Made by a program: the position numbers and the translations under genes
Origin: a virus
Lineage: Duplodnaviria; Caudoviricetes
Length of the DNA: 37,551 bases
Direction: 5' to 3' (one strand)
Virus record (IMG/VR): IMGVR_UViG_3300046747_000816
Coordinates: 1 to 37,551 of that record
Shown here: piece by piece, positions 12,030 to 34,657 of the stretch
How the letters are laid out: every line of letters begins with the position of its first letter
How positions within the stretch are numbered: position 1 is the first letter of the stretch
The notes under the pieces: generated by a model
Told to the model about the DNA's origin: nothing
Seen by the model: only the letters and a program-made list of their open reading frames with translations
Databases searched by the model: none

Positions 12030-12419
12030 GTGGCGAAGGACACCCTCACCGTGCGACAGCGTCGATTCGCCGACGCGTACAACGGCAACGGCACCGAAGC
12101 CGCCAGGAAAGCCGGCTACCGAGGGTCGAACGGAACTCTCGCGGTCACCGCGTACCACCTTCTAAGAATTCCTAAGGTCCGGGAGATCATCGACGCGCGC
12201 GAAGAGGGCGTGCTTCGTCGGCTCGTTCTCACGCGCGACGAGCGGCAGGAACGGTGGAGCGCGATCGCCTGCGACCCAGACGTCCCTGTGCGGGATCAGC
12301 TCAAGGCGCTTGAGGCACTCGGCAGGACCGAGCGCGACTTCGTCGACCGCTTGGAGCACGCGATTGAGGGCAAGACCCTCGAGACGCTGGTGCTTGGCTC
12401 TTTCAAAGAGGAGACGTGA
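12030..12419 (+). CDS. terS: Terminase small subunit
   Basis: LTVRQRRFADAYNGNGTEAARKAGY...AYHLLRIPKV...LKALEALGR. Confidence 0.92.
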   Translation: MAKDTLTVRQRRFADAYNGNGTEAARKAGYRGSNGTLAVTAYHLLRIPKVREIIDAREEGVLRRLVLTRDERQERWSAIACDPDVPVRDQLKALEALGRTERDFVDRLEHAIEGKTLETLVLGSFKEET

Positions 12420-14552: not shown

Positions 14553-16298
14553 GTGGACATCGCAACGCCTTCAGCACTCTCGAAGCGGCAGCAGTACCTG
14601 CGCCGCCTCGGGCAGTTCAAGAACGAGCGACAAAGCTGGGATCCGACGTACAAAGACATTCGCGACTTCATCGAGCCGTACCGTGGGCGCTTCCAGAGCG
14701 ACTCCGAGACGAACCGCGGTGAGCGCAAAGACCAGAACATCATCAACTGCGAGCCCGGTCTCGACGTCGAGATTCAGGCGGCGGGTCAGGTCGCTGGCAT
14801 CACCAACCCCTCGTCGCGCTGGTTCAAGACCTCGACGCCCTACCGCGAGCTCAACGAGCTCAAGAGCGTGAAGATGTGGTGCGCCGAGGTCACCGACCTG
14901 ATGTTGCAGGCGTATGAGAAGAGCAACATCTACGACTCGCTGCACACGCTCTACGGCGACATCAGTCCGTTCGGCACCGCGGTGCTGCACATGGACGAAG
15001 ACGACGAGGAGATTTTCCGCGCCTACGTCTTCCCGCCGGGCACTTACTACCTCGCGAACAGTCCGCGCTTGCGCGTCGACACATGCTTCCGCGAGCTCCG
15101 CATGACGGTGCATCAGCTCGTGAAGGAGTTCGGGCTGAAGAAGTCGAAAGACGGCCCAGGCGTGAGCATGCAGGTGGCGGCGATGTACGCACAGGGCAAC
15201 TACGACGCCTGGGTGAACGTGATGCACGCGATGCAACCGAACGGCGACATGCAGTACGGGCAGATTGGCGCGCGCGGAATGAAGTTCTCCAGCTGCTGGC
15301 TCGAGCGCGACGCTGGCGAAGAGGCCGGGTTTCTGCGCGAGGGCGGCTACGAAGAGCAACCCTTCATGGCTCCTCGGTGGAGCGTCGTGGGTGTCGACGT
15401 GTACGGGCGCGGACCTGGGCACAGGGCGCTCGGCGACATCAAGGCGTTGCAGCTCGTCGAGCGCCGAGAGCTTCAGGCACTCGAGAAGCTGGTCGACCCG
15501 CCCATGAACATGCCCGAGCACTACCGCGACCTGCAGGTGTCGCTGCGCCCGGGCGCGCAGGTCTACACCGACGGCATGCGGCCGAACGACGGCGCTCGAC
15601 CGGCGCTCACCATCGACCCGCGCGCGGTCGAGTATGCCGAGGCCCGCGTGCGCGCTGTCGAGCGCCGAATCGCGAAGTGCTTCCACGCTGACTTGTGGAT
15701 GATGCTGGCCCAGGTCGAGGCCGGGAAGATGACCGCGACCGAGGCGCAGCTGCGCAAGAACGAGGCGATGCTGCAGCTCGGCCCGATGCTCGAGCGCTTC
15801 CACAACGAATGCCTCCGCCCGATGAACCGGCGCGCCTTCAACATCATGATGCGCCGCGGGCTGCTGCCGGAGCCCCCGAAGGAGTTGCTCGGCGTCGAAC
15901 TGCGCGACGAGTACATCAGCATCCTCGCGCAGGCCCAGAAGGCGGTAGGCATTCAGGGTATTCGCGAGGTGACGAGCTACGCCCTCGAGCTCGCCGACGC
16001 CCAGGTGAAGCTGGGGCAGCCTCCGACAGCGCTCGACAAAATCGACGTCGACGAGGCCATCGACCAATACATCAGCATGGTAGGCGCTGCCCCGAGCATC
16101 GTTCGCAGCGACGAAGAGGTGCAGGCGGCACGGCAGGCGCGGGCGCAGCAGCAGGCGCAGCAGGCCAAGATGCAGCAGATGCAGCAGGGCGCCGACACCG
16201 CGAAGACGCTCTCTCAGGCGGACACCGAGGGGGACAACGCTCTCACCCGCGTGCTCGGCGCGCTCGGGGTTCAAGGCGGCACAAACCTGCCATCGTAA
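14553..16298 (+). CDS. Portal (head-to-tail connector)
   Basis: FGTAVL, PRW...YGRGPG..ALGDIKALQ, MTATE, LGP.LER, EYISILAQAQ, Gln-rich tail. Confidence 0.95.
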   Translation: MDIATPSALSKRQQYLRRLGQFKNERQSWDPTYKDIRDFIEPYRGRFQSDSETNRGERKDQNIINCEPGLDVEIQAAGQVAGITNPSSRWFKTSTPYRELNELKSVKMWCAEVTDLMLQAYEKSNIYDSLHTLYGDISPFGTAVLHMDEDDEEIFRAYVFPPGTYYLANSPRLRVDTCFRELRMTVHQLVKEFGLKKSKDGPGVSMQVAAMYAQGNYDAWVNVMHAMQPNGDMQYGQIGARGMKFSSCWLERDAGEEAGFLREGGYEEQPFMAPRWSVVGVDVYGRGPGHRALGDIKALQLVERRELQALEKLVDPPMNMPEHYRDLQVSLRPGAQVYTDGMRPNDGARPALTIDPRAVEYAEARVRAVERRIAKCFHADLWMMLAQVEAGKMTATEAQLRKNEAMLQLGPMLERFHNECLRPMNRRAFNIMMRRGLLPEPPKELLGVELRDEYISILAQAQKAVGIQGIREVTSYALELADAQVKLGQPPTALDKIDVDEAIDQYISMVGAAPSIVRSDEEVQAARQARAQQQAQQAKMQQMQQGADTAKTLSQADTEGDNALTRVLGALGVQGGTNLPS

Positions 16299-16323
16299 GA
16301 ATCTCCCCCAGCGGGCCGACGCT
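16296..16323 (+). promoter_or_regulatory. Late promoter motif copy 2
   Basis: TAAGAATCTCCCCC...GACGCT. Confidence 0.7.
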
Positions 16324-16333
16324 TTGCCTCACC

Positions 16334-16822
16334 ATGCGTCGACCCTCCGCGTTCCTCCTGTTCGCCGCCGTCGCAGCCGCTTCGGTCTTCATCACCACCC
16401 ACCCGGCTCACGCACAGCAGCGGTGCGGAACCAACAAGCTCTGCATCGGCGACAAGAGCACCGAGATTCACATGAAGGGCCTGACGTACTTCGAGGGGCC
16501 CGACTCGGCGAATGACGGCGGCAACGGCGTGGTGTTCAGCGGGCGCGGCACTCTGATTTACGACTTCGCTTCACTCACCTCGACCTCGGCGGCGCTCAAC
16601 ACCGTCTGCGCTGAGAGCTCCGCGGGCACGGCGACCGGGTGCAGGTTCGGGGACCAGGTCCTTCTGGGCATCGATCAGGCGCCGGTGAACGCGTTCGGCA
16701 CTATCTCGGCCTACGTCAGCGCGGCCGACCAGTTCAAGGTGCGAGCGTGCGCGGTCGGCGTCACCGACGGCGGCACGTTCGACATGCCGGATGCCTCGTA
16801 CACCGTGCGCTGTGTACGGTGA
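16334..16822 (+). CDS. Signal-peptide-bearing beta-rich protein, head decoration/spike-like
   Basis: MRRPSAFLLFAAVAAASVFITTHPAHA signal; 6 Cys; YDFASL...G.RFGDQV...SAYVSAADQFKVR. Confidence 0.75.
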   Translation: MRRPSAFLLFAAVAAASVFITTHPAHAQQRCGTNKLCIGDKSTEIHMKGLTYFEGPDSANDGGNGVVFSGRGTLIYDFASLTSTSAALNTVCAESSAGTATGCRFGDQVLLGIDQAPVNAFGTISAYVSAADQFKVRACAVGVTDGGTFDMPDASYTVRCVR

Positions 16823-17151
16823 GCGACGAGCCGCTCGACGCGGCCGGGCGTGACCTCAAGCTCGAGGCCGAGCAGCGCGACGCAGACCTGAAGGCGGTTG
16901 TCGACACGCCAGCGGGTCAGCGGCTCCTCGCGCGAATTCTCGACAACTCGCGCTTTGGCCGTGCCAGCTACGCGGGCGAGCTCACGCACGCGACCGCCTT
17001 CAACGAGGGCGTGAAGCGAATGGCCGATCTCCTCGACGCCGAGGTGCGGCGCGTGTCGTTCAATGCATGGGTGCGCGTGCACCTCGAGCTGACCGCGCTC
17101 AGGGCCCCTCATCAGAATCCCCCACAGCCGGTTGACGCTTCCCACCAATGA
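16819..17151 (+). CDS. Bbp19-like head morphogenesis protein
   Basis: TPAGQRLLARIL...TAFNEG.R; located between portal and scaffold; GTGA start. Confidence 0.8.
   Translation: MSDEPLDAAGRDLKLEAEQRDADLKAVVDTPAGQRLLARILDNSRFGRASYAGELTHATAFNEGVKRMADLLDAEVRRVSFNAWVRVHLELTALRAPHQNPPQPVDASHQ
17112..17139 (+). promoter_or_regulatory. Late promoter motif copy 3 (before scaffold/capsid)
   Basis: TCAGAATCCCCC...GACGCT. Confidence 0.7.
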
Positions 17152-17840
17152 GCGACGGCGCCGGCGCAGACGCGAGCGAGACCACGGTCGGCGGCGGTGC
17201 CGATGCTGCCGCGGTCGCCGCAGACACAGCGTCGAAGGGTACCGAGAGCACGCTCGTCGGCGGCAGCGAGAAGCAGGCCGCTGGCGACAAGGGCGCAGAA
17301 GGCACCACCGAGAAGGCTGGCGAGAAGAAGGCCGACACGAAGGCCGAAGCGCCCAAGCCGGTCGAGTGGGAGAAGTGGAGCCCGAAGGCCATCGAAGGCC
17401 TCGAGCGCCCCGCCGAGCAGCTGAAGGCCGCCCGCGACATCTTCCAGAAGCACGGTTTCTCAGCGGAGCAGGCGCAAGCGGTCGTCGACCTGAGCGACTC
17501 CTTCGCTCGCGAGCAGGCGCAGTCGGACATCGCTCACCTCGAGAAGGTGCAGACCGGGTGGCGCGAGTCCCTGAAATCGGACTCCGACTACGGCGGCGCG
17601 CACCTCAAGTCGACCGCCGCCGATGTTGAGCGCGTGATGAAGCGCTTCGACGGCCGCCCCTACATGGCGGAGCTGCGCCGCGACCTCAACGAGACGCGGT
17701 TCGGTGACCACCCGGGCCTCATCAAGCTGCTCGCCGACCTCGGGAAGTCGATGCGCGAGGACAAGGTCATCACCGGCACGCAATCAGGCTCGTCGCAGAC
17801 TTTCCTCGACCAGCTCTACCCGACCTCGGCGAAGTCCTGA
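17148..17840 (+). CDS. Capsid scaffolding protein
   Basis: Disordered acidic N-terminus; GFSAEQAQ, GDHPGLIKLL..LGK.MRED, LYP ending; precedes capsid gene. Confidence 0.85.
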   Translation: MSDGAGADASETTVGGGADAAAVAADTASKGTESTLVGGSEKQAAGDKGAEGTTEKAGEKKADTKAEAPKPVEWEKWSPKAIEGLERPAEQLKAARDIFQKHGFSAEQAQAVVDLSDSFAREQAQSDIAHLEKVQTGWRESLKSDSDYGGAHLKSTAADVERVMKRFDGRPYMAELRRDLNETRFGDHPGLIKLLADLGKSMREDKVITGTQSGSSQTFLDQLYPTSAKS

Positions 17841-17854
17841 AGGAGAACTGACGA

Positions 17855-18853
17855 ATGGCAACCGAAGCCGCCAACACCTCGCTGCCCACCCTGCTCGATG
17901 CTGCACGTCTGAAGGACCCCGACGGCAAGCAGGCGAAGGTCATCGCCCTTCTCCAGGGCCGAAACGCGTTGCTCGAGGACGCAGTCGCCGTCGAGTGCAA
18001 CCGCGACACCGGCTACCAGTGGACCGTCGACACGGAGCTTCCCAGCGTCGAGTGGCGCCCCGTCAACGCGGGCGTCGCGCCGAGCAAGGGCACCTCGAGC
18101 CAGATGGTCGAGACGTGCGGCCTCCTCGAGACTTCCAGCCAGGTCGACATCGAGTTGCTCAAGCTCGGCAACAACGAGCAGGTCATCCGGTTCGACCAGG
18201 CGCGCAAGCACCTGACCGCGATGAACCGCGAGCTCGAGCGTGCGCTCGTGTACGAATCGCAGAAGGACCACCCCGAGCGGCTCACCGGCTTCATTCCCCG
18301 CTACACCTCGCTCAGCCAGAACTGGCACGAGCAGATCATCAGCTCGCAGATTTCGCACTCGGGCAGCGACGGAACGTCCGTCATCGCCGTGTGCTGGGGC
18401 CCCGACAGCTGCCACCTCATCTACCCGAAGGGGACGGTGGGCGGCGTCGAGCACAAGGACATGGGCGAGCAGCGCGTCACCGACGCGGCGGGCAAGCGGC
18501 TCACCGTGAAGGAAGACGTCTGGACGGCGCGCCTGGGGCTCGCGATTCCCGACCCGCGCTTTGTCGCGGTGCTGCGCAACATCGATACCGGGGCGATCGC
18601 GAAGACCGGGAAGCTCCTCATCGAGGACATGATTTCGCTGCAGGAGCAGATCGAAGACGAGAAGATGGGACGCTGCGCCTTCTACTGCAACCGCCTGGTG
18701 CGCACGTACCTGCGGCTGCAGACGGCCGACACGGTCGCCGGAGCGGGCCCGGTCCACTTCGACGAAATCGGCGGCAAGAAGGTGCTGATGTTCGGCGGGT
18801 GGCCCGTGCGGCGCTCCGACGAAATCCTCAACACCGAGTCGTACATCAGCTGA
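17855..18853 (+). CDS. Major capsid protein (BPP-1-like)
   Basis: PTLLD, N.LLED, LP...WR..N.GV.PSK, PERLTG..PRY, G.PVRRSDEILNTE; AAGGAG SD. Confidence 0.93.
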   Translation: MATEAANTSLPTLLDAARLKDPDGKQAKVIALLQGRNALLEDAVAVECNRDTGYQWTVDTELPSVEWRPVNAGVAPSKGTSSQMVETCGLLETSSQVDIELLKLGNNEQVIRFDQARKHLTAMNRELERALVYESQKDHPERLTGFIPRYTSLSQNWHEQIISSQISHSGSDGTSVIAVCWGPDSCHLIYPKGTVGGVEHKDMGEQRVTDAAGKRLTVKEDVWTARLGLAIPDPRFVAVLRNIDTGAIAKTGKLLIEDMISLQEQIEDEKMGRCAFYCNRLVRTYLRLQTADTVAGAGPVHFDEIGGKKVLMFGGWPVRRSDEILNTESYIS

Positions 18854-18875
18854 GAGCGCACAAGGAGCCACGCAC

Positions 18876-19346
18876 ATGTACATCGATGCCGCCAACCGCT
18901 TTTCGGACGCCCAGAGCCTCGCGGGTGTCGCAGCGGGCACCGCGCTCTCGGAGAAGAGCATTTACGTCGGAACGGCTGCGACCGTGCCGGGCATGACGTC
19001 TGCGACGCCGGTGAACGACCCGGGCCGTGGCGGAGAGAAAGAGATTCTCTGCCAGGTAGTGGAGGACTTCGACAGCGCGGGCGACGACACGACGCTGTTC
19101 GTCGAGCTCGTGCAGGCCGACGACGAGGGGCTGACCACGAACCTCGCGGTGCTCAACCGCACCCCCATCATCGCGCAGGCCACGATGGTGAAGGGCTACA
19201 ACTTCCGAATGGGCACCGTGCCGCCGGGCGTCAGTCAGGCGTACCTGGGCCTGCGGTTCAACGTGGGCACTTCAACGCCGACCGCCGGGAAAATCACCGC
19301 GGGCCTCGTCGAGTCGCTGCGCGAGGCTTCACTGAGCGCGATGTGA
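18876..19346 (+). CDS. Capsid cement/decoration protein (Bbp16-like)
   Basis: MYIDA..RFSDAQ...YLGLRFNV...TAGKITAGLV; follows capsid gene. Confidence 0.85.
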   Translation: MYIDAANRFSDAQSLAGVAAGTALSEKSIYVGTAATVPGMTSATPVNDPGRGGEKEILCQVVEDFDSAGDDTTLFVELVQADDEGLTTNLAVLNRTPIIAQATMVKGYNFRMGTVPPGVSQAYLGLRFNVGTSTPTAGKITAGLVESLREASLSAM

Positions 19347-19365
19347 GCTGAAGGAGAACACGACC

Positions 19366-19713
19366 ATGGCCGCCGCCGACAAGACCCCCGCCGCCCCGCC
19401 GACCGCCCCGCCTGCCGCCCCTGCGGCGAAGGCGAAGCGGTACCTCGTCACCGCGAACTGCTACCGAGACGAGCTCGGCGGCTTCCACAAGCGCGGGAGC
19501 TACGTCACGATTCCGGCCGGCTCGAAGGCCGTGCCCTCGCAGACGTGGACCGAGGTCGACGACAACGGCAGGCCCGTGGTCGGCGGACAGGTCGCGAAGC
19601 CGATCGCCAAGTTCGTCGAGTCGAAGAAGGCTCTCGCCGCTGGCGGCGTCGGTGCCGACCCGATGGAACGACTCACCAGCGCCCTCGAGAAGCTCGTCGG
19701 CTCGAAGGGCTGA
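19366..19713 (+). CDS. Hypothetical virion-region protein
   Basis: AAGGAG SD; Pro/Ala-rich N-terminus. Confidence 0.75.
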   Translation: MAAADKTPAAPPTAPPAAPAAKAKRYLVTANCYRDELGGFHKRGSYVTIPAGSKAVPSQTWTEVDDNGRPVVGGQVAKPIAKFVESKKALAAGGVGADPMERLTSALEKLVGSKG

Positions 19714-19732
19714 TTCCGAGAGGAGGTAGCCC

Positions 19733-20356
19733 GTGCCCACAGCGGAAGCCGCCGTGTGCAACGTGGCCCTCGTCCGCATTGGGCATACGCAGCTGCTCGA
19801 GAGCCTCTCCGGCAGCGACGTCGTCTCGAAGACGTGTGCCGCGCTGTTCCCGTTCACGCGTGACCAGCTCCTGCAGGCGCGCCCTTGGCCCTTCGCCACG
19901 CTCCGCCGTGCGCTCGCCGTGCTGGCAGACGATGCGGCCGACGACGAGCACCGCGACGGGTGGGACTTCACCTACGCCCTACCCGCCGACTGCATCGCCC
20001 CGCGGTACATCTGGAACGGCGGGCAGGAGAACCCCGGCGAAGACCAGACCATCCCCTACCGCATCGAGTCGTCACGCGACCTGAAGAGCCGCGTGTTGCT
20101 CGCGAACTTCGACGACGCGCAGCTCGTCTACACGGCGAAGGTGGTCGAGGTGCCCAGGTGGGACCCCCTCTTCGCCGAAGCAGTAGCCATGAAGATGGCG
20201 GCAGACCTCGCGCTGGGCATCGCGAAGAAGCCGCAGCTCGGGCTCGAGTTGATGCGGGCCTTCCAGATGTCGCTCACCGTCGCCTCGGCCTCGGCGGGGA
20301 ACCAGCAACAGGCGCTGCCGCGGCCAGAGAGCATCTTCGAACGCGGGAGGCTGTGA
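19733..20356 (+). CDS. Tail tubular protein A / head-tail adaptor
   Basis: VCNVALVRIG, PWPFAT.R, WDFTYALPADC, WDPLFAEAVA; GGAGG SD. Confidence 0.88.
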   Translation: MPTAEAAVCNVALVRIGHTQLLESLSGSDVVSKTCAALFPFTRDQLLQARPWPFATLRRALAVLADDAADDEHRDGWDFTYALPADCIAPRYIWNGGQENPGEDQTIPYRIESSRDLKSRVLLANFDDAQLVYTAKVVEVPRWDPLFAEAVAMKMAADLALGIAKKPQLGLELMRAFQMSLTVASASAGNQQQALPRPESIFERGRL

Positions 20357-22843
20357 GTGCCCGCCATTCGGCAGACGAACTTCAGGGCCGGTGAGCTCTC
20401 CCCGCTGCTGTGGGGGCGCACCGACCTGCCGGTGTTCGGCGCCGGCCTGCGCACCTGCCGAAACTTCTTTCCGACGAAGCAGGGCTCGCTGATGTCGCGA
20501 CCTGGCACCACCTACGTGGGCGGCGCGAAGGGCGTCGATGACCCCGGGCTCGGCGAGCGAGACGGTGGGCAGGCGCGGCTGATTCGCTTCGACTCTGGCG
20601 ACGAGCTCTACGAGTCGTACGCCCTCGAGGTCGGTTTTCGGTACATGCGCTTCATCGCGAACGGCGGCATCGTCGAGAGCGTGCCCGGAACGCCCTACGA
20701 GATTGCCACCCCGTGGAGCAACACCGAGATTTGGGAGCTTCAGTACGCGCAAATCGGCGACGTGCTCGTCATCGTGCACCCGAATCACGACCCGTACGAG
20801 CTCGTGCGGCACGGACATACCGACTGGGAACTGAGGAAGTTCCGATTCAAGGCGTACGAGCCGTTCGACACTGGGCGCGTGGGCTTCACCGTCGTCACGC
20901 CGGACAACTGGGCAGCGTCCACCATCTACGTGCTCGGCGCGATGGTCGCCAACGGCGGCAAGGTCTACGAGGCCATCGCCACGACCGGAGACCAGAAGTC
21001 GGCGGGCTCCGGCGGCCCGGCCGGAACCGGCGAGGTCATCGTCGACAACCACGTGACGTGGAGCTTCGTCGGCATCGTGAATCAGACCGACACATCGCAC
21101 CTCGGCCGCGAGTGGCAATGGCGGTGGACCGCGCTGGTGCGCGACAACGAGACCAACGCGCTCTACGAGACGCTGTCGCTCCCCGTCACCGAAGAGTTCG
21201 ACGGCAGCGACTACGACGACTCCGCGGCACCCATCATCGACTTCTTCGCCATCTACCCCGACATGCCGGTGCGGCTGCGGCGACCAACCACCGCCAGCCT
21301 CGGCAGCCCGCCCGAGGGCTCCGATACGTACACCATCGAAGAGTTCCTGCTCTACCGCGGGCGCGGCGGGCTCTTCGGCTTCATCGGCAGCACGAAGACG
21401 ACCGAGTTCATCGACTTCGGTGACGCGCCCAACTACGCGGTGCAGCCGCCGCAGGGAAACGAGCCCTTCGGAGACGCGACCGAGGCGACCGGAGTCCCAG
21501 CGCCCTTCGACACCCGGCGGCTCGACCGGCCATCTGCCGTCGCCTTCTTTCAGCAGCGCATCGTGTTCGGCGGGCTCACGCGGTCGCCGCAGGACGTCTT
21601 CGCCTCGAAGACGGGCGACTTTCAGAACTGGGACGAGAGGAAGTACCTCGATTACTCGGGTGAGCCCCTGCACTTCCAGCTCGCGGCGACGCGCCGTCAG
21701 AAGATGCGCTCCTTTGCGCGCCTCGGCCGCTTCCTCCTGAGCCAGACGAGCGCGGAGCAGTGGTACATCGGAGGAGTTCAGGGGAGCCCGCTCGACTTTG
21801 ACAGCGTCGACGCCGACGTCATCGAGCCGATCGGCTCGCTCACCATCGGCGCATTGCTCATCGAGGGCGCGGTGCTCTTCGCCCGGGCCAAGGGGTTCGG
21901 CGTTCGCGCGCTGATGCCGGGCGGGCAGAACGAGTCACCGTTCAGCGGGGTCGACGTCTCTGTCACAGCGGAGCACCTCTTCCGCGGCAAGAACAAGGGA
22001 ATCGTCGATTGGACCCACCAGGAAGACCCGTTCGGGCTCACATGGGTGGTGCGCGAAGACGGGCAGCTGCTCTCACTCACCTTCACGAAAGACAGCATCG
22101 GGTGGGCGCACCACGACACCGACGGCGTCGTCGAGTCGGTGTGCTCCATTCCCGAGGGCACCGAAGACGCGGTCTATCTGGTGGTGGTGCGACAGGTCGG
22201 CGACACCTACAAGCGGTACATCGAGCGCATGACGTCGCGGGTTCTCTACGAGGGCCCCGCTCTCGACGACGAGGGCAACGTCACGCCCGCAGACGACATC
22301 TGCATCGACTGCGCGAAGCGGTACTACGGGGCTCCGGCGCGGCACATCACGGGGCTCGACCACCTCGAGGGCCGCGACGTCTGGGTCATCGGGCCGCACC
22401 TCGACCCGTTGGGGCCCTTCACGGTCGCCAGTGGCGCAATCGACATGGGCGACGTGGTGCCGGCGAACGTCACCGCAGAACTCGGCGTGGCTGCGCTCCT
22501 CGTGTACGTCGGGCTGAAGTTCACCTGCGACCTCGAGACGCTCGACATCGCGAGCAGTGACGCGCGGCTCAGGCAGAAGACCGTCTCCTTCGTGGGCTTC
22601 GAGGTCGACGAGACCCGCGGCATCAAGGGCGGCATAGACTTCGACCACCTCGACGAGTTTGACCGGCGCGACCTCGACGGCGGCTACGACCCCATCGGGA
22701 ATGCGACCGCGCTCGTCTACCGGCCCGTGCCTGCTGAGTACAACCAAAGCGCTCGACTCTGCCTTCGTCAGGACTTGCCTCTTCCCATCACCGTGATTGC
22801 TGTGACGCGAGAGGTCGACGTTGGGGGCTCAAGTGGCCTCTGA
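20357..22843 (+). CDS. Tail tubular protein B / nozzle
   Basis: QTNFRAGELSP.L.GRTD, RPGT, YAQIGDV, PSAVAFFQQR, SKTGDFQN, GWAHHDTDG, LDHLEG, QDLPLPITV. Confidence 0.9.
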   Translation: MPAIRQTNFRAGELSPLLWGRTDLPVFGAGLRTCRNFFPTKQGSLMSRPGTTYVGGAKGVDDPGLGERDGGQARLIRFDSGDELYESYALEVGFRYMRFIANGGIVESVPGTPYEIATPWSNTEIWELQYAQIGDVLVIVHPNHDPYELVRHGHTDWELRKFRFKAYEPFDTGRVGFTVVTPDNWAASTIYVLGAMVANGGKVYEAIATTGDQKSAGSGGPAGTGEVIVDNHVTWSFVGIVNQTDTSHLGREWQWRWTALVRDNETNALYETLSLPVTEEFDGSDYDDSAAPIIDFFAIYPDMPVRLRRPTTASLGSPPEGSDTYTIEEFLLYRGRGGLFGFIGSTKTTEFIDFGDAPNYAVQPPQGNEPFGDATEATGVPAPFDTRRLDRPSAVAFFQQRIVFGGLTRSPQDVFASKTGDFQNWDERKYLDYSGEPLHFQLAATRRQKMRSFARLGRFLLSQTSAEQWYIGGVQGSPLDFDSVDADVIEPIGSLTIGALLIEGAVLFARAKGFGVRALMPGGQNESPFSGVDVSVTAEHLFRGKNKGIVDWTHQEDPFGLTWVVREDGQLLSLTFTKDSIGWAHHDTDGVVESVCSIPEGTEDAVYLVVVRQVGDTYKRYIERMTSRVLYEGPALDDEGNVTPADDICIDCAKRYYGAPARHITGLDHLEGRDVWVIGPHLDPLGPFTVASGAIDMGDVVPANVTAELGVAALLVYVGLKFTCDLETLDIASSDARLRQKTVSFVGFEVDETRGIKGGIDFDHLDEFDRRDLDGGYDPIGNATALVYRPVPAEYNQSARLCLRQDLPLPITVIAVTREVDVGGSSGL

Positions 22844-23324
22844 GCTTCAGGTGGTGCCGGCGAGGCTCGAGCACGCGATGCAGTTCGCTCCGATGCTGCG
22901 CGCTGGCGAGCTCGACGAGCTCGTGGCCCAGGGCTTCCCATCTGCCGAGCAGGCGCTCGTCGACGGCATCTGCGACTCCGACGAGGCGTGCACCGTGTTC
23001 GACGGCGACAAGCTGGTGGCGATGTTCGGGGTCGCGCCTGACCGCACAGCGCAGGTGACAGTCGTCGGCGGGCGTCGCGTTGGGGTCGTCTGGTTCCTCA
23101 CCGGCGAGGGCTTCCAGCGTTCCGTGCGCCGCGGTCTTCGTGTCGCGCGGCGGGCCGTCGCCGCGATGCTCGGCCTCTACCCGGTGCTCATCACCGTCAT
23201 TGATGCTCGCTACCTCGGGGCCGTGCGCTGGGCGCGATGGCTCGGCTTCACCATTGGTATCGCGGTGCCGTGGGGGCCGCTCGGTATGCCATTTCACCCC
23301 GCTGTGATTCGGAGGCCTGCATGA
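22833..23324 (+). CDS. T7 gp13-like / GNAT-fold virion assembly protein
   Basis: LR..ELDE, VAMFGV, VWFL, AVRWARWLGF; located after the nozzle gene. Confidence 0.75.
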   Translation: MASELQVVPARLEHAMQFAPMLRAGELDELVAQGFPSAEQALVDGICDSDEACTVFDGDKLVAMFGVAPDRTAQVTVVGGRRVGVVWFLTGEGFQRSVRRGLRVARRAVAAMLGLYPVLITVIDARYLGAVRWARWLGFTIGIAVPWGPLGMPFHPAVIRRPA

Positions 23325-23785
23325 GCGGCATCTTCAGCGGAGCATCGGACATCGTGGGCGCGGGCTTCCAACTCGACGCCGAGCAGAAGCAGAACAATCG
23401 AGACCTGCAGCGGCAAAACCTGGCCTCCGATGTCGGCACGGAGCAGGCCCAGGAGAAGGGCAACTACCAGGCGGCGCAGATTCGGCAGCAGGTGGCGCAA
23501 CTCGGGGCCAAGCAGCGCACCGCATACGCGAACAGCGGCGTAGACTCGACCGTGGGCACCGCGGCACAGGTCCAGGCGAACACCTCGATGCAGGGCGAGC
23601 TCGACGCGCAGATGGCGAAAAACAACGCCGCGCGCGAGGTCTGGGGCTACCAGCAAGCGAAGAAGCAGGCCCAAGAGGACTTCCAGGCGAAGAACGATGC
23701 GGCAAGCCGCAAGGCGGCGGGCACTGTGGTGGGTGGCGCAGGGAAACTCGCAGGCGGCGTGGCTTCGCTCATGGGTGGCGGATGA
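23321..23785 (+). CDS. Small internal virion (ejection) protein, T7 gp14-like
   Basis: QRTAYANSGVD, NNAAREVWGY, Gly/Ala-rich ends; GGAGG SD. Confidence 0.8.
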   Translation: MSGIFSGASDIVGAGFQLDAEQKQNNRDLQRQNLASDVGTEQAQEKGNYQAAQIRQQVAQLGAKQRTAYANSGVDSTVGTAAQVQANTSMQGELDAQMAKNNAAREVWGYQQAKKQAQEDFQAKNDAASRKAAGTVVGGAGKLAGGVASLMGGG

Positions 23786-25554
23786 AGGTCGAGGGCTACG
23801 GCGAGCAGAAGGTCGGCCCCGAGCAGGCACGCGTGCCGGTCGCCGGCGTGCCGCGAGAGACCGGCTTCGAGGCCATCTCGCGCGCCGGAGCTGGGCTTGA
23901 TGCAGCCGCCGGTGCGGTTGAGCAGCAGTACAACAAATACCAGCACGAGGCCGCGGTCACCGACGCCCGCGACGCGCTCACTCAGCTCGAGCAGCGGCAG
24001 ACGGCACGCATGTACGGCGACACGACCGGCGTCTTGCCGACGACTGGCAACCGTCTGGGCGAGCCTGGAGACCAAGGCACCTCGACCGAGGGCTTCCTCG
24101 CCACCCGCGGCAAGTCGGCTGCGGAGCAGAGCAGCAAGGTGCTCTCCGACTTCGACGGCGACGTCACCGACATCAGCGACAAGCTCTCGAGCCCAGCCGC
24201 CCAGAAGATTTTCCAGGCCGAGGCGAAGGGCCGCTACGCGGAGATGCACCGCGCGGTCGAGGCGCACGTCAGCCGCCAGGTTGAGCAGGCGAAGGCCGAC
24301 AGCCTGGCCGCGGCTTCCGATGAGGCGGTGCGTGCGGCCGCTGTCGACCCGGGCAACGATGGTCTCGCACAGGACCGCATCGCAAGCGTGGTGGGCGCAG
24401 CTCACGGCATGGGCGGCAGCGAAGACGCCATCAACACGAAGACGCTCGAGGTGCAGCAGCGCGTGGCGATGGCGCGCATCGATGCGCTCCTCGCGCGCAA
24501 GGACGTGCAGCGGGCCGAGGAGGTGCTCGACGCGGGCAAGTGGGCGTTGGGCGCGCAGCTCGACAACTACAAGGACAAAGTCGCGAAGGTGAAGGGCATC
24601 GTTGAGACCGAGCGCTTCGTCACAGACGCCGTTCAGCACGCTCGCCTCCCGAGCGGGCAGGTCGACGAGTCGGCGGTGTTGCGCGCTGTCGACGCGATGC
24701 CCGACGAGGCGGCCCGAGCGCGTGCCGAGCCCATCGCCGCGCAGCACCTGCTTCGCGCCAAGAAAGCGTACGAGGCCGACACGCAGCAACTCGTGCAGCA
24801 GTCGCGGCAGATGGTCTTCGAGCAGGGGTGGGCGAGTTTCTCCGCATCGCCGCAGGCCGAGCAGCTCTTCATTCGGAACCGCGAAGAGTTCGATGCGATG
24901 CGGAACCGCGACGAGAAGGAGCTCAACGCGCTCGAGCGCAAGCAGCGCATGCGCTCAAACAACCGCGCGGCCATTCGTGAGCAAGGTGAAATCGACAAGA
25001 CCGCGCAGGCCGAGTGGGGCACCGAGCTCGCTCGCGACACCAACGCCTCGCTGAAGGATTTTCTCGCCGACCACCCGGGGTTGAGCAAGCACATTCCCGC
25101 GACGCTCGAGAAGCAGCAGGCCGTGCAGCAGAAGGTCGAGAAGGCCGGCCTTGCCGAGCACCAGAACGCATTCGTGTCCGACTACATGGCGGAGGCCCGC
25201 TACCGCATGCCTGCCTTCACCGGCAAGCCGGCCGAGGTGAAGCAGCAGGAGCGCGATTGGGAGCAGGCACAGCGCGACGCGGCCACGAACGTGTACACGC
25301 GGCAGATGGAGCAGAACGGCGGTAAGGCGCCCACCGCGAAGGAGCTCGACGCGGAGAAGGCGCGGCTGATTCTGAAGCTGCCGCCGGTGAGCACCGACCC
25401 CGCGCAGCTGCAGCAGCAGGTCGACGCGATGAATCGGGTACTCCGCGGTCCGCCATCGAAGGCGCCGCCTGTGCCTACTGGCATCTTCAAGACCGACAAG
25501 AACGGCGTGCGCTGGGAGAAGCTGAGTGACGGCACCGCGCGGCGGGTGAAGTGA
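23782..25554 (+). CDS. Internal virion (ejection) protein
   Basis: Ala/Gln-rich helical 590 aa between the small and giant ejection genes; GFLATRGKSA motif. Confidence 0.8.
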   Translation: MKVEGYGEQKVGPEQARVPVAGVPRETGFEAISRAGAGLDAAAGAVEQQYNKYQHEAAVTDARDALTQLEQRQTARMYGDTTGVLPTTGNRLGEPGDQGTSTEGFLATRGKSAAEQSSKVLSDFDGDVTDISDKLSSPAAQKIFQAEAKGRYAEMHRAVEAHVSRQVEQAKADSLAAASDEAVRAAAVDPGNDGLAQDRIASVVGAAHGMGGSEDAINTKTLEVQQRVAMARIDALLARKDVQRAEEVLDAGKWALGAQLDNYKDKVAKVKGIVETERFVTDAVQHARLPSGQVDESAVLRAVDAMPDEAARARAEPIAAQHLLRAKKAYEADTQQLVQQSRQMVFEQGWASFSASPQAEQLFIRNREEFDAMRNRDEKELNALERKQRMRSNNRAAIREQGEIDKTAQAEWGTELARDTNASLKDFLADHPGLSKHIPATLEKQQAVQQKVEKAGLAEHQNAFVSDYMAEARYRMPAFTGKPAEVKQQERDWEQAQRDAATNVYTRQMEQNGGKAPTAKELDAEKARLILKLPPVSTDPAQLQQQVDAMNRVLRGPPSKAPPVPTGIFKTDKNGVRWEKLSDGTARRVK

Positions 25555-28500
25555 TGGCCGACACGGCACCGATGTTCGACGACATCGAGGGTTCGGCCGA
25601 CGCGCCCGCGACGGCCCCCAGCTTCGACGCGATCGAAGACGTCAATGGGGTGCAGGTCGATTCACCCCCTCAGGCCAGCGCGCAAAATCAGCCTCAATCG
25701 CCCGCGACCGAATATGCGCCCGTTGACTTCGCACAGCAGCTGAATGCACCGGCCGAGGTCGAGCCCGCGCTGCTGCCTGACCCGAACAAGGGGCTCTTTG
25801 AGGACGCCAATCGCATTCGCTCCATCTTCAGCGGCCCCACTGCGCCGACCACCGAAGACGGCGTCGACAAGCACTCTCAGATTCTGCAGCTGCGGCAGCG
25901 CACCGGGCTCTCGTACCAAACCATCGCGGAGAAGCTGCCCGAGTTTCAGAAGCAGTGGGAGCTCGCGCAGACGGACCCGGTCGAGTGGGTGCGCCACAAC
26001 CCCCAGCTCGCCGACTACGTGCTGCGCAACCCCGAGGCCGGAACGATGGTTCCGTACGACCCGGGGCTCGACAAGGTCTCGAAGGCGCTCAACGCCATCA
26101 CCGGCTTCATCTTCCCGAGCGCGGCCGACGTCGAGGCCGTGCGCCGCGCCACCACGTACACGGACCCGTTCACCGGCAAGAAGAGCGTGCCGGGAGCAGG
26201 CAGCGCGGTCGACGCCGCAGCCACCTCAGAGTCGGTGCACATCAAAGAGCCGCAGGCGGGGCTCGCGAGGCAAGACGAGAAGAGCAAGGCCATCAATGAG
26301 AGCACGTTCGGCGGAGCGCTCGCCGTCGGGCAGCGCGAGAAAGAAGCCGTCGCCGGCATCAACGCGAACCTCACATGGTGGGAGATTGGGAAGCGCCGGC
26401 ACGCCCCGGGCGAGCCGAAGCCCACGGCGCTGCTCGAGCAGCAGGCGCTCGACTTCGAGTCCAACGCGCAGCCCCGAGACTTGCAGCAGGGCGAGGTGGG
26501 CAAGGTGCTCTCGAGCGCGGCCAGCGGAGCGGCCTCGAGCATCATGGCCACCGGCGACATGCTCAAGGGCGCAACGGGCGGCGCGCTCATCACCGGCACC
26601 ATCGGGGCCGGCATCACACTGCTGGGCACCCGCTCGCCCGCGCTCGCCCGCGCGGCCTTCCTCGAGTCGGCTGGCGTCGGCGCGAAGCTCGGCGGCAAGG
26701 GCGGCGCGTACGCCTTCACCGTGCGCGCTGAGGGTGGCGCCTACTACCGCGAGCTGCTGCAGGCGAAGCGCGACGACGGCTCTGCGGTGCCTGAAGACGA
26801 GGCTTGGGCCGGCGCGATGATTGTCGGCAACCTGAACGCGGCCATCGAGGTGGGCACCATCAACCCATCGCTCGCCGTGTGGGGCGGCGTCGGCGAGCTC
26901 ATCAAGAGCGGCTCGCGCAAGGCGGCCGTCGCCGAACTGCTGAGAAACGGCGCGTTCCGCAACGCCTCGAAGCGCCTCGCGAAGCAGTGGGCAGAAGCGA
27001 CGCTGACCGAGTCGGGCGAGGAGACTCTTCAGAATCTCACGAAGCAGGCGGCCAGCTACTTCCTGGGCACGCAGAAGGAGGTCAGCCTCGCGGAGGGCGT
27101 GAAAGAGGGGCTCGAGGCCGTGCCGTCGTCGGCGCTGCTCGCGACCACCGGCGCAGCCTCGCAGCACATCCAGTCGTCCGCCTTTCAAGCGGTGACCGGC
27201 GTCGGCGGTGCGGTGACCGACGAGATGCGAGCTCGTGCGGGCCTCGAGGTGTCGCAGCACCTGCAGCGCTCCGACGACGCCCACCAGTCCGCGGCCATCG
27301 TCCACGAGCTCGCCAACTTCGACGTCCACGACAGCCCCGTCACCAAGGCCGACCCCGAAGGCATCGCACAGGCGCTCCAGAGCGGCGGCCTGGGTCCGAG
27401 CCTCTACATCACCACCGACGCGTACGTGAAGTTCAACCAGGGCGCCAAGGTTGACCTGGAAACGGCGGCGAAGCGCGACCTCGGCCCTGACGGCTACCAG
27501 CGCCTCAAAGAGGCCGTGGCGACCGGGCAGCCCCTGGAAGTGCCATCGGCGAAGTACCTCGCCGACTGGTCGACCGAGCAGAAGCAGGCGCTCGAGCCGC
27601 ACACCACCACCCGCGCAGACCTACCCACGCCGGCGGCTGTCGACAAGAAGGAGTTCGACGGCAAGGTGCAGGCGCTCCTCGACGCCATGGAGAAGGGGCC
27701 GGTCGAGCCCGAAACCCCCGGTGAGGCCGCGTTCCTCGACGTCGCAGAAGCGCAGCTCGAGATGAGCAGCAACGATGGGGACCCGCAGAAAGCCCGCCAG
27801 AAGATGGAACTCATGCGCGCCACCGTGCGCGTGTACTCAGAGGTCTTCGGTCAGAGCGCCGACGAGCTCTTCAAGAACTTCGCGCTCCACGTGAGCGCCG
27901 GCCTCGACCCCACCATGGAGGAGGTGCTGCAGGCCAGGAACGAGAAGCTCAGCGCCACCGACCGAGCCGAAGAGCTGTTGCGCGACGAAGGTACGGGCCT
28001 GCCGAATGAGGCGGCAATGGCCGCGACGCGTGCGCCTGAAGGCAAGCCGCTCGTCGGCCACCTTGCGGTCGAGGGCTTCAAGTGGCTCAACGACCAGGTC
28101 GGTCACGACAAGGCCGACCTCCTCGCGCGCGCCGTCGGCGTGGCGCTGAGCGGTGTCGCTCAGCCGTTCAAGCTGGGCGGCGCGAACTTCGGCTTCTACG
28201 TGAAGGACCAGGCCGAGCTCGACAGCATCGCCGAGAAGGTGCGCGCCGCGATGCCTGCCCAGCTGCGCGGCTTCGACATCACCGCGGCCGTGGGCAAGAC
28301 GGTGGGCGAGGCCAGTGCTCTGAATCAGACGAACATCGACCAGGCGGTGAAAGAGGGGGCTCGCGCGAACACCAGGCCACCGCACCCCACCCTTCCCGGC
28401 GAAAGCGCGAAGGCGGAGCGGCCGAAGGGGCTGCCTGCCGATCTCGCGCCAGAGTCCCTCGCGTTCCCCGAGAACAAGGCGTCAGGCGTCATCGCGCCTG

Positions 28501-31500
28501 AGGCCGTCGAGTCGGTGACGAAGCTCACGCCAGAGGACTACTTCAAGCGTGCCTACCGGGACCCGGTCACGGGCGAGTGGACCGAGCGCGCGTGGAAGGC
28601 GATGCGGCGCAAGGCGCACGTCGCGATGATTGACGTCGCCGGTCTTGGCAACGTGAACGCGGCGCTCGGCAAGGCCGGCGGCAACGAAATGCTGCGCCGG
28701 GTCGGCTTCGAGGCGCAGTCGATTGACGGCCACCGCGTCGACTTCACTCACCTGCACGGCGACGAGTACTGCGCTCAGAGCGATGACCCCGTCGAGCTCG
28801 AGGGCTTCCTTGATCAGCTGCGCGCCAACCTGTCGACGCAACCTCTGGTCTACACAGACCCCAAGACCGGCAAGTTGAAAGCGCAGCCCATCGCGTTACA
28901 TACTGGCCTCGGTGAGCGAACTCTTGAAGCAGCAGACGCAGACCTCAACGCCAAGAAAGCAGCCGCTCGTCGAGCCCGGGAAACTGGCCTCGTTCGTCGC
29001 GGGAGTGAACATGCTGGATCCGGACGTGCCGCCGGAAGTGAAGCAGGCGGCGCTGCGAGAGCGGAATCGGGATCCGGTCGCAGCCATGAAGAAAAACCCG
29101 GCGGAGTACCAGAAGCTCTACGCGGAGCTCCGGGCGACTCCGGGGTACGGGACCGACTTTCTGTAGAAGAGCAGCAGCTCGACTTCCTCAAGTCGAAGGC
29201 CGCGAACGCTCGCGCACCTGAGGCCAAGAAGGCGTGGCGCGAGATGCTCGCGTGGGCCGAGGGCGACCGCAAAGGCGAATTCCCTTCAGTGCCCTGGCGC
29301 TTCGAGAGCGCCGCGTGGGCCGCGGTGGGATTCGGTGACCCGAAAGGTTTCGCGGGCAACGAGGCCGGCACGGACCTGCGCAAGGCGATGGGTGGTCGAG
29401 GCCGCGTCAACAACGCGCGCAACAAAGACATCGGGCTGAGCGGCAACGCCCGCGACATGGCTGATCAGCGCAAGCGCGTGCCCGGCTCACAGGGCTTCTT
29501 TCAGGAGCCGAACGAGACGACGCTCTTCTACGACATGAGCCCGGAGCCCCAGCGCTTCGAGCAGTCGAACAAGCAGACCGAAACGCCAGCGTTCAAGAAG
29601 TGGTTCGGCGCGTCGAAAGTGGTCGACGAGAGCGGGCAGCCACAGGTCGTCTTCCACGGCAGCGCATACACGGGCGCTCCTGGCGCCGAAGCCTTCAGCG
29701 AGACGCTGCAAGACAAGACGGCGCTGTTTGGGCCCGGCTTCTACTTCACGGTCAACCCAGACGTTGCCAGCACCTATGTCGACAAAGAGGCGACGGCGAT
29801 CGGCAAGAAGGGGGAAACACCCGGCGTGGTTCCGGCGTACCTGTCGATCAGCACGCCGTTCGACGTCGACGCGCACGCAAGCGCTCTGGTGCCACAGCTG
29901 AAGAAGTTCAGGGCCAAGACGCCGCCAGCGACCATCAAGCGAATGATCGACTCGGCGCTCAAGGACGAGACGGGCATCGGCAGCGCTGATGGCGTCGGCA
30001 CGTGGATCGACAACACGGAGTGGGCCTACCGAATCGCCGATGGGATGAAGAAGACCGGCGACGAAATCGCTCGCCCACACTTCGACTACATCCTCTCAAA
30101 GGCGCGCGACTACATCGTCAAGGGCATCACGTCCGGCGAGTTCGAGACGGGCGAAGACGTGATCAAACACATCGAGCACAACGTGTTCGAGGTCATGCAA
30201 GACCACGCCGGCAACGTTCGCCAGGTGCTCGAGATGCTCGGCTTCGACGGCATCACGCACACGGGCGGTGGCCGACTGGGTGGCGGCGACAAGATGCACA
30301 AGGTGTGGATCGCCTTCAAGCCGACGCAGATCAAGTCTGCGCTCGGCAACAAGGGCACCTTCGACCCCAACAATCCCAGCATTCTGGAGTCGGCGGGCAA
30401 GAACAAGGGCGAGGGCCCGCGCGGGCACACCGAGATTTTCAACGAGGGCCTGCGCCGCGTCTACAACGTGGTGCTCAACCCGAAGGCAGACCTGTCGACG
30501 TTCCTTCACGAGAGCGCGCACGTCTTCCTCGACCTGATGAGCAACCTCGCGTTGCGGCCGGATGCGCCCGATCGCGTGCGCACCGACTTCGCTGCGGCGC
30601 TGAAGTACCTCGGCGCGAAGAACGCTGAAGACCTCAAGCTCACCACCGGCAAGGAGGACGACCCCGCCCGCCTGCGCCACGAGAAGTGGGCCACCGCCTT
30701 CGAGCGCTATCTCTTCGAGGGCAAGGCGCCGAGCGTGAAGCTCGAGGGCGCGTTCGCTCGCTACCGCCTGTGGCTCTCGCGCGTCTACGGGCGCGTCGAG
30801 GCGGCGGTGCCCGGCGCTCACATCAACGACGACATCAGGCGCGTGTTCGACCGGATGCTCGCCACCGACGCGGAAATCGACGAGCAGAAGAAGCGCATGG
30901 GCCACGTCGCACCGATGGCGGCGAACGTGCTCGGCCTCACTCCAGAGCAGTTCAAGGCTCACATCGAAGCGGGCATCGAGGCGACCTCGCACACGCGCAA
31001 GCGGGTCGACATGGCCGTCGCGAAAGATGTGCTCCGCGAGAAAGAGGCGTGGTGGAAGGAAGAACTTCGAGCCGAGCGCGAGAAGGCGAAGGGCGACTAC
31101 GAGCAACTGCAGGCGCGGCAGGTTCAGCAGGCGCTCGCGAACAAGGGCGACATCAAGACCGGCCCGCTCGACAAGGCGAAGGTGGTCGCGGCCATCGGTG
31201 CGCCGGCGGCGAAGAAGTTGGGCGCGGCGGCGACGAAGACCGGCGGCGCGGACCCCGGCCCGATCGCCGAGTTCTTCGGCTTCAAGACGGTCGAGGAGAT
31301 GCTGAAGGCGCTGCTCGAGCTGAAGCCAAAGAACGAATGGGTGAACGAGACGGCCGACCAACGCATGGCCGAGAAACACCCCGAGCTGCTCGCCGAGCGC
31401 ACGAAGCTGCAGCAGATGGTCGACGCCGGCCTGCACGGTGAGCTCGACGCGAAGTACCTCGAGCGCGAGCTCATGCTGCTCTCGGCCAAGATGACGGTGC

Positions 31501-34322: not shown

Positions 34323-34604
34323 TCAGCACCCGCCAGCAGGGCAGCAGGTCAACCCGTAGTCGGTGCAGGAAGCGGAGCGCGTACAGGAAGCGGGAGCGGC
34401 GGCGCGCACCGTCTGCTCGACAGATGCCACCGTTCCCTCTTCGCAATAGTTCTGGCTGTACGGTTGTCGCGAGCTTCCCCCATCGACGCCGCTGCAGGTC
34501 TCGAAGCCCGAGCAGCCAAACTTGCGGAAGGAGCCAGCATCCCCACCGCCAGCGCCGGGCGGACCACACGCAATCAGAAGCAGCATGAGCAGAGCGCTTC
34601 GCAT
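34323..34604 (-). CDS. Cys-rich lipoprotein (antisense moron-like gene)
   Basis: MRSALLMLLLIAC lipobox; 8 further Cys; TAGGCT-N6-ATG upstream. Confidence 0.8.
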   Translation of the reverse strand: MRSALLMLLLIACGPPGAGGGDAGSFRKFGCSGFETCSGVDGGSSRQPYSQNYCEEGTVASVEQTVRAAAPASCTRSASCTDYGLTCCPAGGC

Positions 34605-34621
34605 CTCTTGAGCCTACCTCG

Positions 34622-34649
34622 TAAGAATCCCCCCTACGAAACGCAAGCT
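34622..34649 (+). promoter_or_regulatory. Late promoter motif copy 4
   Basis: TAAGAATCCCCCC...CAAGCT. Confidence 0.7.
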
Positions 34650-34657
34650 GTCGCCGT

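Follow-up and report, generated by a model that had tools for sequence, protein, structure and literature searches.

Diguanylate cyclases act as two-fold dimers of GGDEF domains, in which each active centre combines the metal acids and the phosphate lysine of one domain with a lysine of the other (PMC8041772). In the model of the competent DgcR dimer, K179 acts on the substrate of the other domain, and the domains touch through D183–Y286 and H187–D282 (PMC8041772). GGDEF domains in polyvalent proteins have been reported as cyclic dinucleotide makers, with a proposed interference in host nucleotide responses (PMC5512222), and phage YuA has a short GGDEF-only protein (review PMC10333796). Here, we analyzed the tandem GGDEF pair encoded by the virus record IMGVR_UViG_3300046747_000816, which is classed as a provirus and is 86% complete; the whole record of 37,551 bases is called the window. 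Both sets of GGDEF motifs sit in one open reading frame (ORF) of 2923 amino acids (aa) at 25551–34322 (+), and domain 1 (D1) and domain 2 (D2) each keep catalytic residues that the other has lost. This split pair is a real, conserved variant of GGDEF and apparently undescribed. Judging from the sequences, we consider it moderately probable that D1 and D2 close face to face and form a single-chain, one-centre enzyme, which would join two purine nucleotides on delivery.

Both domains resemble PleD and DgcR (PF00990) in fold (Z 14–16) and in where their motifs lie, and the contacts between domains that have been proposed for a competent dimer recur here. However, the module has two unequal domains in one chain and one metal centre instead of two, and neither domain is complete alone; a canonical diguanylate cyclase holds all catalytic residues in one domain, whereas here they are split between D1 and D2. 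Its signature also differs (H-x-[HS]-G-D-E), and it has neither a sensor domain nor an RxxD site. With the Hypr GGDEF enzyme GacA, the module shares an Asp-type signature (GDE[YF]) and a base-reading Asp that is changed in part of the family. Hypr enzymes are symmetric homodimers with Ser/Thr at this position (PMC6456294), whereas the module has Asn or Gln (Thr in 2/162 relatives at D2) and pockets that vary independently. In Cas10, the metals are on Palm2 and the attacking ATP is on Palm1 (PMC11734703). The module likewise has tandem palms, a degenerate first and a metal-binding second, with one proposed centre at their interface and the metal acids in the second palm only; unlike Cas10, it has no HD domain, no type III CRISPR complex and Asn/Asp pockets of the diguanylate cyclase type. 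No HD domain or Cas family matched the ORF, and its neighbours are virion genes. The module appears to be a duplication separate from that of Cas10. The mCpol/OptS (Panoptes) system has a GGDEF-like palm and unusual dinucleotides in phage–host conflict, and an Asn/Ser swap at its base-contact position shifts the products (PMC12657218); mCpol/OptS itself, unlike the module, is a host defence, a homo-oligomer and without the GGDEF signature. Iyer et al. 2017 described giant proteins, from phages and conjugative elements, that combine GGDEF with ART and further cargo, as found here, but their text does not mention a tandem pair or a functional split, and a figure or supplement could hold a tandem example (PMC5512222).

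The two GGDEF domains of the window protein

D1 carries the motifs RDEGTGLPN (aa 811–819), AVEGFKWLNDQVGHDKAD (aa 839–856) and KLGGANF (aa 874–880), and D2 carries RDPVTGEWT (aa 1003–1011), DVAGLGNVNAALGKAGGN (aa 1028–1045) and HLHGDEY (aa 1067–1073). An earlier note on this DNA, made from the sequence alone, had read these motifs and the residues lost from them correctly for this protein. In the alignment with PleD, A839 falls on D327, i.e., in place of the metal Asp, and K844, N847, D848, H852 and D856 fall on K332, N335, D336, H340 and D344, respectively; the signature of D1 has shrunk to GGANF. The unusual GGDEF residues are not assembly errors, because a contig from a second study spans 27900–28816 without any difference.

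Pfam GGDEF (PF00990) matched two stretches of the whole ORF above its cut-off (27.3 bits vs 23.8, E 3.5e-6) and the fragment at 34.7 bits vs 23.8, whereas TIGR00254 stayed under its cut-off (19.1 vs 37.4). Atlas feature matches were GGDEF clusters at 0.97–0.98, and no PADLOC model matched D1 or D2. An AlphaFold (AF2) model of the pair, built from 23 sequences, reached a predicted local distance difference test (pLDDT) of 94.4 and a predicted template modelling score (pTM) of 0.87, and D1 modelled alone reached a pLDDT of 91.4. We compared the predicted models with 48,161 solved chains. The best match of D2 was a diguanylate cyclase (Z 15.6, root mean square deviation (rmsd) 2.2 Å, 136 aligned), and D1 alone also matched diguanylate cyclases (Z 14.1, rmsd 3.6 Å, 140 aligned; Z 14.0, rmsd 2.3 Å, 127 aligned). 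The GGDEF fold proposed for both domains was therefore borne out by the predicted structures. In the model, the Pro-rich linker and helix between the domains are ordered, and residue 958 in the linker shows covariation with 841, 842 and 878 of D1. The linker is 40–90 aa longer in four other loci (L004, L017, L036 and L010), with motifs unchanged where examined.

Conservation of the complementary pattern in relatives

Among 1.84 billion representatives searched, 403 matched at E 0.001 and 167 at 1e-10, and the best 150 were used. Together with further matches and 36 loci, 197 sequences were gathered; 8 partial ones were dropped, leaving 189 with both domains, and 27 were removed because they shared 70% identity or more with a retained sequence. 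The resulting 162 relatives (149 proteins and 13 loci) lean to the matches most like the query, and the locus rows are circular for the GDE motif because the pattern used to find the loci includes GDE.

The full complementary pattern was found in 141/162 relatives. In the centre that would be formed by the metal site of D2 and the cross-acting residues of D1 (centre A), D2 contributes D1028 and D1071 (each 162/162), E1072, K/R1136 and D/E1129 (each 161), and D1 contributes K/R844 (158/162), D848 (133) and H852 (159); these eight positions are kept in 133–162 of 162. The G-D of the D2 signature is present in all 162. In the mirror centre (centre B), the D1 side retains Asp839 in 7/162, an acid at 879 in 96, K/R929 in 82 and an acid at 922 in 7, and the D2 side retains K/R1033 in 126/162, Asp1037 in 38 and His1041 in 6; in none of the 162 does D1 have both the metal Asp and the signature acid. 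Of the 352 alignment columns, the ten with the highest conservation correspond to these motif positions or lie next to them. Using structural end registers, and assuming a gap-free last helix, DgcR D282/Y286 map to 1129/1133 in D2 and 922/926 in D1; of the two symmetric sets of DgcR-type contacts, one is conserved and the other is not. The pair 848/1133 is D/N in 93 relatives, and charge-swapped versions occur as K/E (7 relatives) and R/E (2 relatives). Judged from this alignment, the pattern is a conserved division of labour and not decay.

The earlier note had proposed complementary losses and an intramolecular pseudo-heterodimer with one working centre, and had asked whether homologues conserve the pattern. 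The alignment shows non-random conservation of the complementary loss, and the one-centre arrangement is supported by the predicted structure, the single kept contact set and the charge swaps. Complementarity holds for the K/D/H of D1 against the metal acids of D2. The loss of the Lys from D2, which we considered as a family rule, was rejected: position 1033 is K in 102, R in 24 and G, the residue of the window protein, in only 21 of 162.

The signatures of both domains have diverged from that of PleD. In the family, the D1 signature has lost one residue and reads K-x-G-G-D-F or R-x-G-T-N-F. Positions 839 and 879 covary (S/D 68, T/N 42), which suggests that the former metal site of D1 may now be a hydrogen-bonded pair. 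The RxxD inhibitory site is absent from D2, with G at 1060 in 135/162. Candidates for the cross-dimer Arg of the DxxTGLxNRR motif are position 820, which is Arg in 34 of 162, position 821 (104) and position 1012 (35).

The proposed reaction and alternative activities

From diguanylate cyclase chemistry, D2 would bind one nucleoside triphosphate (NTP) with Mg2+ through D1028, D1071 and K1136, its base being read by N1036 and D/N1045. N847 and D/N856 of D1 would grip the base of a second nucleotide, and the ribose OH of this nucleotide would attack. K844 of D1 would cross the interface to the α-phosphate of the D2-bound NTP and stabilize the attacked phosphate, with D848/H852 of D1 latching onto N1133/D1129 in the last helix of D2. 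E1072 would possibly be the general base, a role proposed for the equivalent signature Glu (PMC6456294). Since metal could not bind at the mirror centre, one round would make one bond and give pppNpN as a linear product, which in most members would include G. A cyclic product would need a flip as in DncV/cGAS, or re-binding as in Cas10. Because the partner is built in, with neither sensor domain nor RxxD site, the enzyme would be active on arrival, before phage gene expression.

Two base pockets and one metal centre would also suit dinucleotide binding, and the same residues could thus serve a signal-destroying enzyme or sink with an anti-defence role, in which the metal centre hydrolyses an NTP between the α- and β-phosphates with water, or opens or binds a host dinucleotide. 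The two-domain fold of GTP cyclohydrolase III is related (Z 11.2, rmsd 2.6 Å, 106 aligned), and the chemistry of this enzyme is hydrolytic. Diguanylate cyclases outrank it as fold matches (Z 14–16), the triphosphate Lys/Arg (161/162) and the cross-acting Lys/Arg (158/162) are residues of the synthesis reaction, and a pure sponge has no need for two invariant metal acids. Although other domains of polyvalent proteins have been proposed to degrade defence nucleotides (PMC5512222), we consider such an activity unlikely.

The domain order and the split are those of Cas10, which elongates and cyclises (PMC11734703). A Cas10-like polymerase or ligase, with repeated rounds or a partner other than an NTP in D1, would release longer oligonucleotides, cyclic oligomers, unusual linkages or conjugates. 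A type III-D2 Cas10 makes SAM-AMP (PMC13294483), and mCpol forms 2'-5' linkages (PMC12657218). In the module, D1 has no conserved triphosphate site (K/R929 82/162), and D2 departs from PleD by a His/Ser at the first signature Gly and a His at the Arg position (152/162). Both domains are nevertheless nearer to diguanylate cyclases than to Cas10, and the D1 pocket retains the Asn and Asp/Asn of the purine site, which makes this activity quite improbable.

D2 retains the metal acids, a base pocket and usually K/R1033 (126/162), i.e., much of what an ordinary diguanylate cyclase would need if the D2 domains of separate ejected chains paired with each other and D1 was a scaffold or nucleotide sensor. 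IVP-D, the internal virion protein to which the ORF is related, is present in several copies. However, D2 lacks the cross-dimer His (6/162) and mostly the Asp (38/162), both of which D1 keeps (159 and 133), K/R1033 is missing in 36/162 including this protein, and covariation ties D1 to D2. Pairing between chains is therefore very unlikely. We also regard as very unlikely a cyclase of the class III adenylyl cyclase pseudo-heterodimer style, in which one NTP would bridge the interface, with its triphosphate in D2 and its base in D1, to give a cyclic nucleoside monophosphate. Human soluble adenylyl cyclase aligns across both domains (Z 9.5, rmsd 6.3 Å, 249 aligned), and mCpol and Cas10 hold the base and triphosphate of one ATP on different protomers (PMC12657218); yet this alignment is loose and ranks under the single-domain GGDEF matches, and D2 has a base pocket of its own (N1036 142, D/N1045 160 of 162).

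Base pockets and product

Both base pockets are kept, with N847 in 159/162 and D/N/Q856 in 162/162 relatives in D1, and the D2 counterparts as given above; therefore, two nucleotides would fit the proposed one-centre synthase. Position 856 is N in 89, D in 66 and Q in 7, and position 1045 is D in 125, N in 35 and T in 2 of 162. The D1/D2 combinations are N/D 68, D/D 50, N/N 20, D/N 15, Q/D 7, N/T 1 and D/T 1, with at least one Asp pocket in 140/162, and the tree implies about 21 and 24 changes at these two positions. Anti-correlated pockets that would force a mixed product were unsupported (856 vs 1045: 1.6 same, 1.5 opposite, p 1).

The earlier note had compared the Asn at 1045 with the change in Hypr enzymes and had named a mixed dinucleotide among the possible products. 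The Asn is true for this protein but is a minority state in the family, and a mixed product does not follow from it, because the Hypr substitution is Ser/Thr, not Asn (PMC6456294). Overall, the interpretation in that note was supported in part, for the fold, the complementarity, the one-centre arrangement and the delivery by homology and gene order, whereas the loss of the D2 Lys and the Asn at 1045 are not family rules.

Covariation was computed without near-invariant columns. Among 17,423 inter-domain pairs, the top two were 856–1069 (z 10.5) and 848–1132 (z 10.0), which rank 11 and 15 among all 44,079 pairs. The states at 856–1069 are D/H 48, N/S 81, D/S 14 and N/H 8.

Several observations weigh against the single-chain synthase. 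After tree correction, the covariation of 856 with 1069 was not significant (median p 0.25; 3.5 pairs changed in the same direction and 0.1 in the opposite one). At 848/1133, the swaps to K/E and R/E may be few independent events. D2 often keeps its own Lys/Arg (126/162) and D1 the acid at 879 (96/162), and a fully dead mirror centre needs neither. The face-to-face geometry of the domains is itself putative. In the Foldseek alignment of the whole model to Csm1, 408–441 columns fitted poorly (rmsd 16–18 Å); Csm1 was not among the 50 structure matches listed. The general-base role of the signature Glu is disputed (PMC8041772). No single product is implied, because the base pockets vary independently. 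In addition, no GenBank phage record of 50,697 covers 80% of the module, and no cultured carrier was found among them.

Probable delivery in the virion and possible role

The C-terminal part of the ORF is homologous to internal virion proteins. Residues 1618–2899 match phrog_9880 (E 3.5e-183), and BPP-1 Bbp10, a listed IVP-D homologue (PMC4819975 Table 2), matches the C-terminal part with E 4e-22 and 45% of 1283 aa covered. These 1283 aa match 49 of the 50,697 GenBank phage records, Bbp10 among them. IVP-D-type proteins carry domains destined for the cytoplasm (PMC4819975). The gene order agrees with the homology to Bbp10: in the window, the ORF follows the tail tube and other internal virion genes, and a tail tube B homologue was found in 29/36 module-bearing loci (L002–L017, L025–L044), several of the others being short contigs. 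From homology and gene order, we infer that the giant ORF is delivered in the virion, as the earlier note had claimed.

The delivered chain would hold several unrelated enzymatic domains, as polyvalent proteins do: the GGDEF pair, an ADP-ribosyltransferase domain (ART-PolyVal) and an HExxH motif, whose H, E and H are nearly invariant in an alignment of 23 proteins. The ART-PolyVal domain at 29625–30362 has a long insertion, with 246 aa over a 140-position profile.

The likeliest purpose of the module would be, we infer, to disturb host cyclic di-GMP (c-di-GMP) or cyclic GMP-AMP signalling or nucleotide-triggered defence in myxobacteria. c-di-GMP has a role in myxobacterial motility and development. 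A bolder reading, which we hold only tentatively and think rather doubtful, is that phages and plasmids of myxobacteria inject a ready-made, single-chain synthase in which the Cas10 layout was re-invented from a duplicated GGDEF, and whose product is not known as the end product of any GGDEF enzyme. This product would be a dinucleotide that is linear and contains G, an unusual linkage or an oligomer of greater length. The synthesis at entry would act as counter-defence, either by jamming effectors that nucleotides activate or by adding to an inhibitory signal like that of Panoptes, and each base pocket would have changed back and forth from Asp to Asn some twenty times on the tree. In the literature found, phage answers to nucleotide signalling are sponges and nucleases; a synthase delivered by the virion, if true, would be the reverse strategy and would precede all phage gene expression.

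The module of ~350 aa, with its confident model, would be a natural, covalently fixed, half-active GGDEF pair. Its structure could reveal the competent GGDEF dimer with substrate bound, for which the DgcR and GacA papers relied on models, and could establish the residues that work from one domain on the other. The repeated Asp/Asn switches in the pockets are a ready panel for new nucleotide products.

Origin and distribution of the module

The nearest phage relative found was the stand-alone GGDEF of the YuA-like Bordetella phage CN1 (APL99421.1), which the D1 profile matched over 141 columns (probability 99.3, E 6e-21). The CN1 protein shares with D1 a short first helix and a C-terminal basic tail, but it is a single 152-aa domain with all catalytic residues, encoded outside the virion gene block. 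Duplication of a compact GGDEF of the CN1 type, followed by a splitting of roles, is the simplest and likely origin suggested by these sequences. No published description of a tandem or virion-borne phage GGDEF module was found, as judged mainly from abstracts and with subscription literature little covered. GGDEF in polyvalent proteins and the idea of signalling interference were already published (PMC5512222), whereas the split pair was not found described in this literature.

Most carriers are giant proteins; 127/149 have at least 2000 aa and 126/149 match the IVP-D C-terminal part. Other cargo among 42 Pfam-scanned proteins comprises PBECR5, LPD22, ART-PolyVal, ddrB-ParB, N4-type virion RNA polymerase, InPase and GNAT; P0112 unites the N4-type virion RNA polymerase (aa ~1709–2453) and the GGDEF pair in a single chain. 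The module also occurs in DarA_C proteins and in proteins of 640–780 aa ending in a Toprim domain. P0155, P0161, P0164, P0166 and P0147 join it to GNAT, InPase or DarA_C, the last being of the type found in the P1 antirestriction head protein, and form a second virion carrier. In a clade of 457–778 aa (P0061, P0064, P0067, P0068, P0070, P0083 and P0086), the module is N-terminal and the D1 pocket has Gln, with a Toprim domain in two scanned members; this clade looks plasmid-borne. The plasmid relatives of the Toprim-type carriers are DUF3991/Toprim proteins: P0070 matched 5 of 72,556 plasmid records, in the DUF3991/Toprim part only.

A single-sequence scan of viral contigs gave no match, whereas profile scans did find relatives. 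A scan of GTDB gave 14 loci, of which 7 are module-bearing giant ORFs, all titled Myxococcales or Archangium-type, and 7 are single GGDEF matches. The tandem-module matches in bacterial genomes are from Myxococcota (7/401 genomes of this phylum); the module was not found in 401 genomes of the Trichloromonas phylum in a run without a positive control. Loci L018–L024, considered as members with the tandem module, were set aside as single GGDEF matches. Among these, L018 (10001–10438) and L021–L024 (match from 10001), from Actinomycetota and Chloroflexota, have an H-L-S-G-D-E-F signature like that of D2 and keep all other catalytic residues; they are possible relatives of the ancestral domain.

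Gene neighbourhood of the window

A podoviral block starts at 12030 on the + strand and comprises terminases, portal, protease, major head, two tail proteins, three internal-virion genes, the giant ORF and a tail fibre gene (Table 1).

Table 1. Features of the window, with strand and basis of assignment
Feature	Position	Strand	Basis
Podoviral morphogenesis block overall	14553..22843	+	PHROGs 332, 458, 212, 394, 376
Portal/head-tail adaptor	14553-16298	+	PHROGs set 332, 458, 212, 394, 376 for morphogenesis genes
Protease	17148-17840	+	PHROGs (morphogenesis set)
Major head	17855-18853	+	PHROGs (morphogenesis set)
Tail proteins	19733-20356 and 20357-22843	+	PHROGs (morphogenesis set)
Upstream internal-virion genes, three	22821..25554	+	phrog_308, phrog_418, phrog_1044
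Internal-virion gene, first of three	22821-23324	+	PHROGs match
T7 gp14-like internal-virion gene	23237-23785	+	Pfam T7_gp14 E 0.0012, under cut-off
Lysin-like domain gene; IVP-C candidate by position	23782-25554	+	PHROGs match
Giant polyvalent internal virion protein, putative IVP-D (T7 gp16)-type homologue, 2923 aa	25551..34322	+	ORF; phrog_9880, Bbp10 matches
GGDEF domain 1, metal-less half, aa ~805-945	27963..28385	+	K844, N847, D848, H852, D856 kept
Pro-rich linker and helix, aa ~946-995	28386..28535	+	Ordered in model, pLDDT 83-96
GGDEF domain 2, metal half, aa ~996-1140	28536..28970	+	D1028, H-L-H-G-D-E-Y (1067-1073), D1129, N1133, K1136
ART-PolyVal ADP-ribosyltransferase, second cargo domain, aa 1359-1604	29625..30362	+	Pfam PF18760 E 1e-15, 59.2 bits vs cut-off 31.2
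HExxH motif (HESAH, aa 1653-1657), start of conserved C-terminal part	30507..30521	+	Sequence

The stretch of ~330 bases that separates the tail fibre gene from the giant ORF (34323–34657) contains short ORFs only, without a Pfam match. No RNA data set was among the listed holders of the window DNA. The G+C content of the window is 65–69%, and near-identical DNA is held by soil and rhizosphere metagenomes, with at least half of its words in three runs, one of which is possibly the source.

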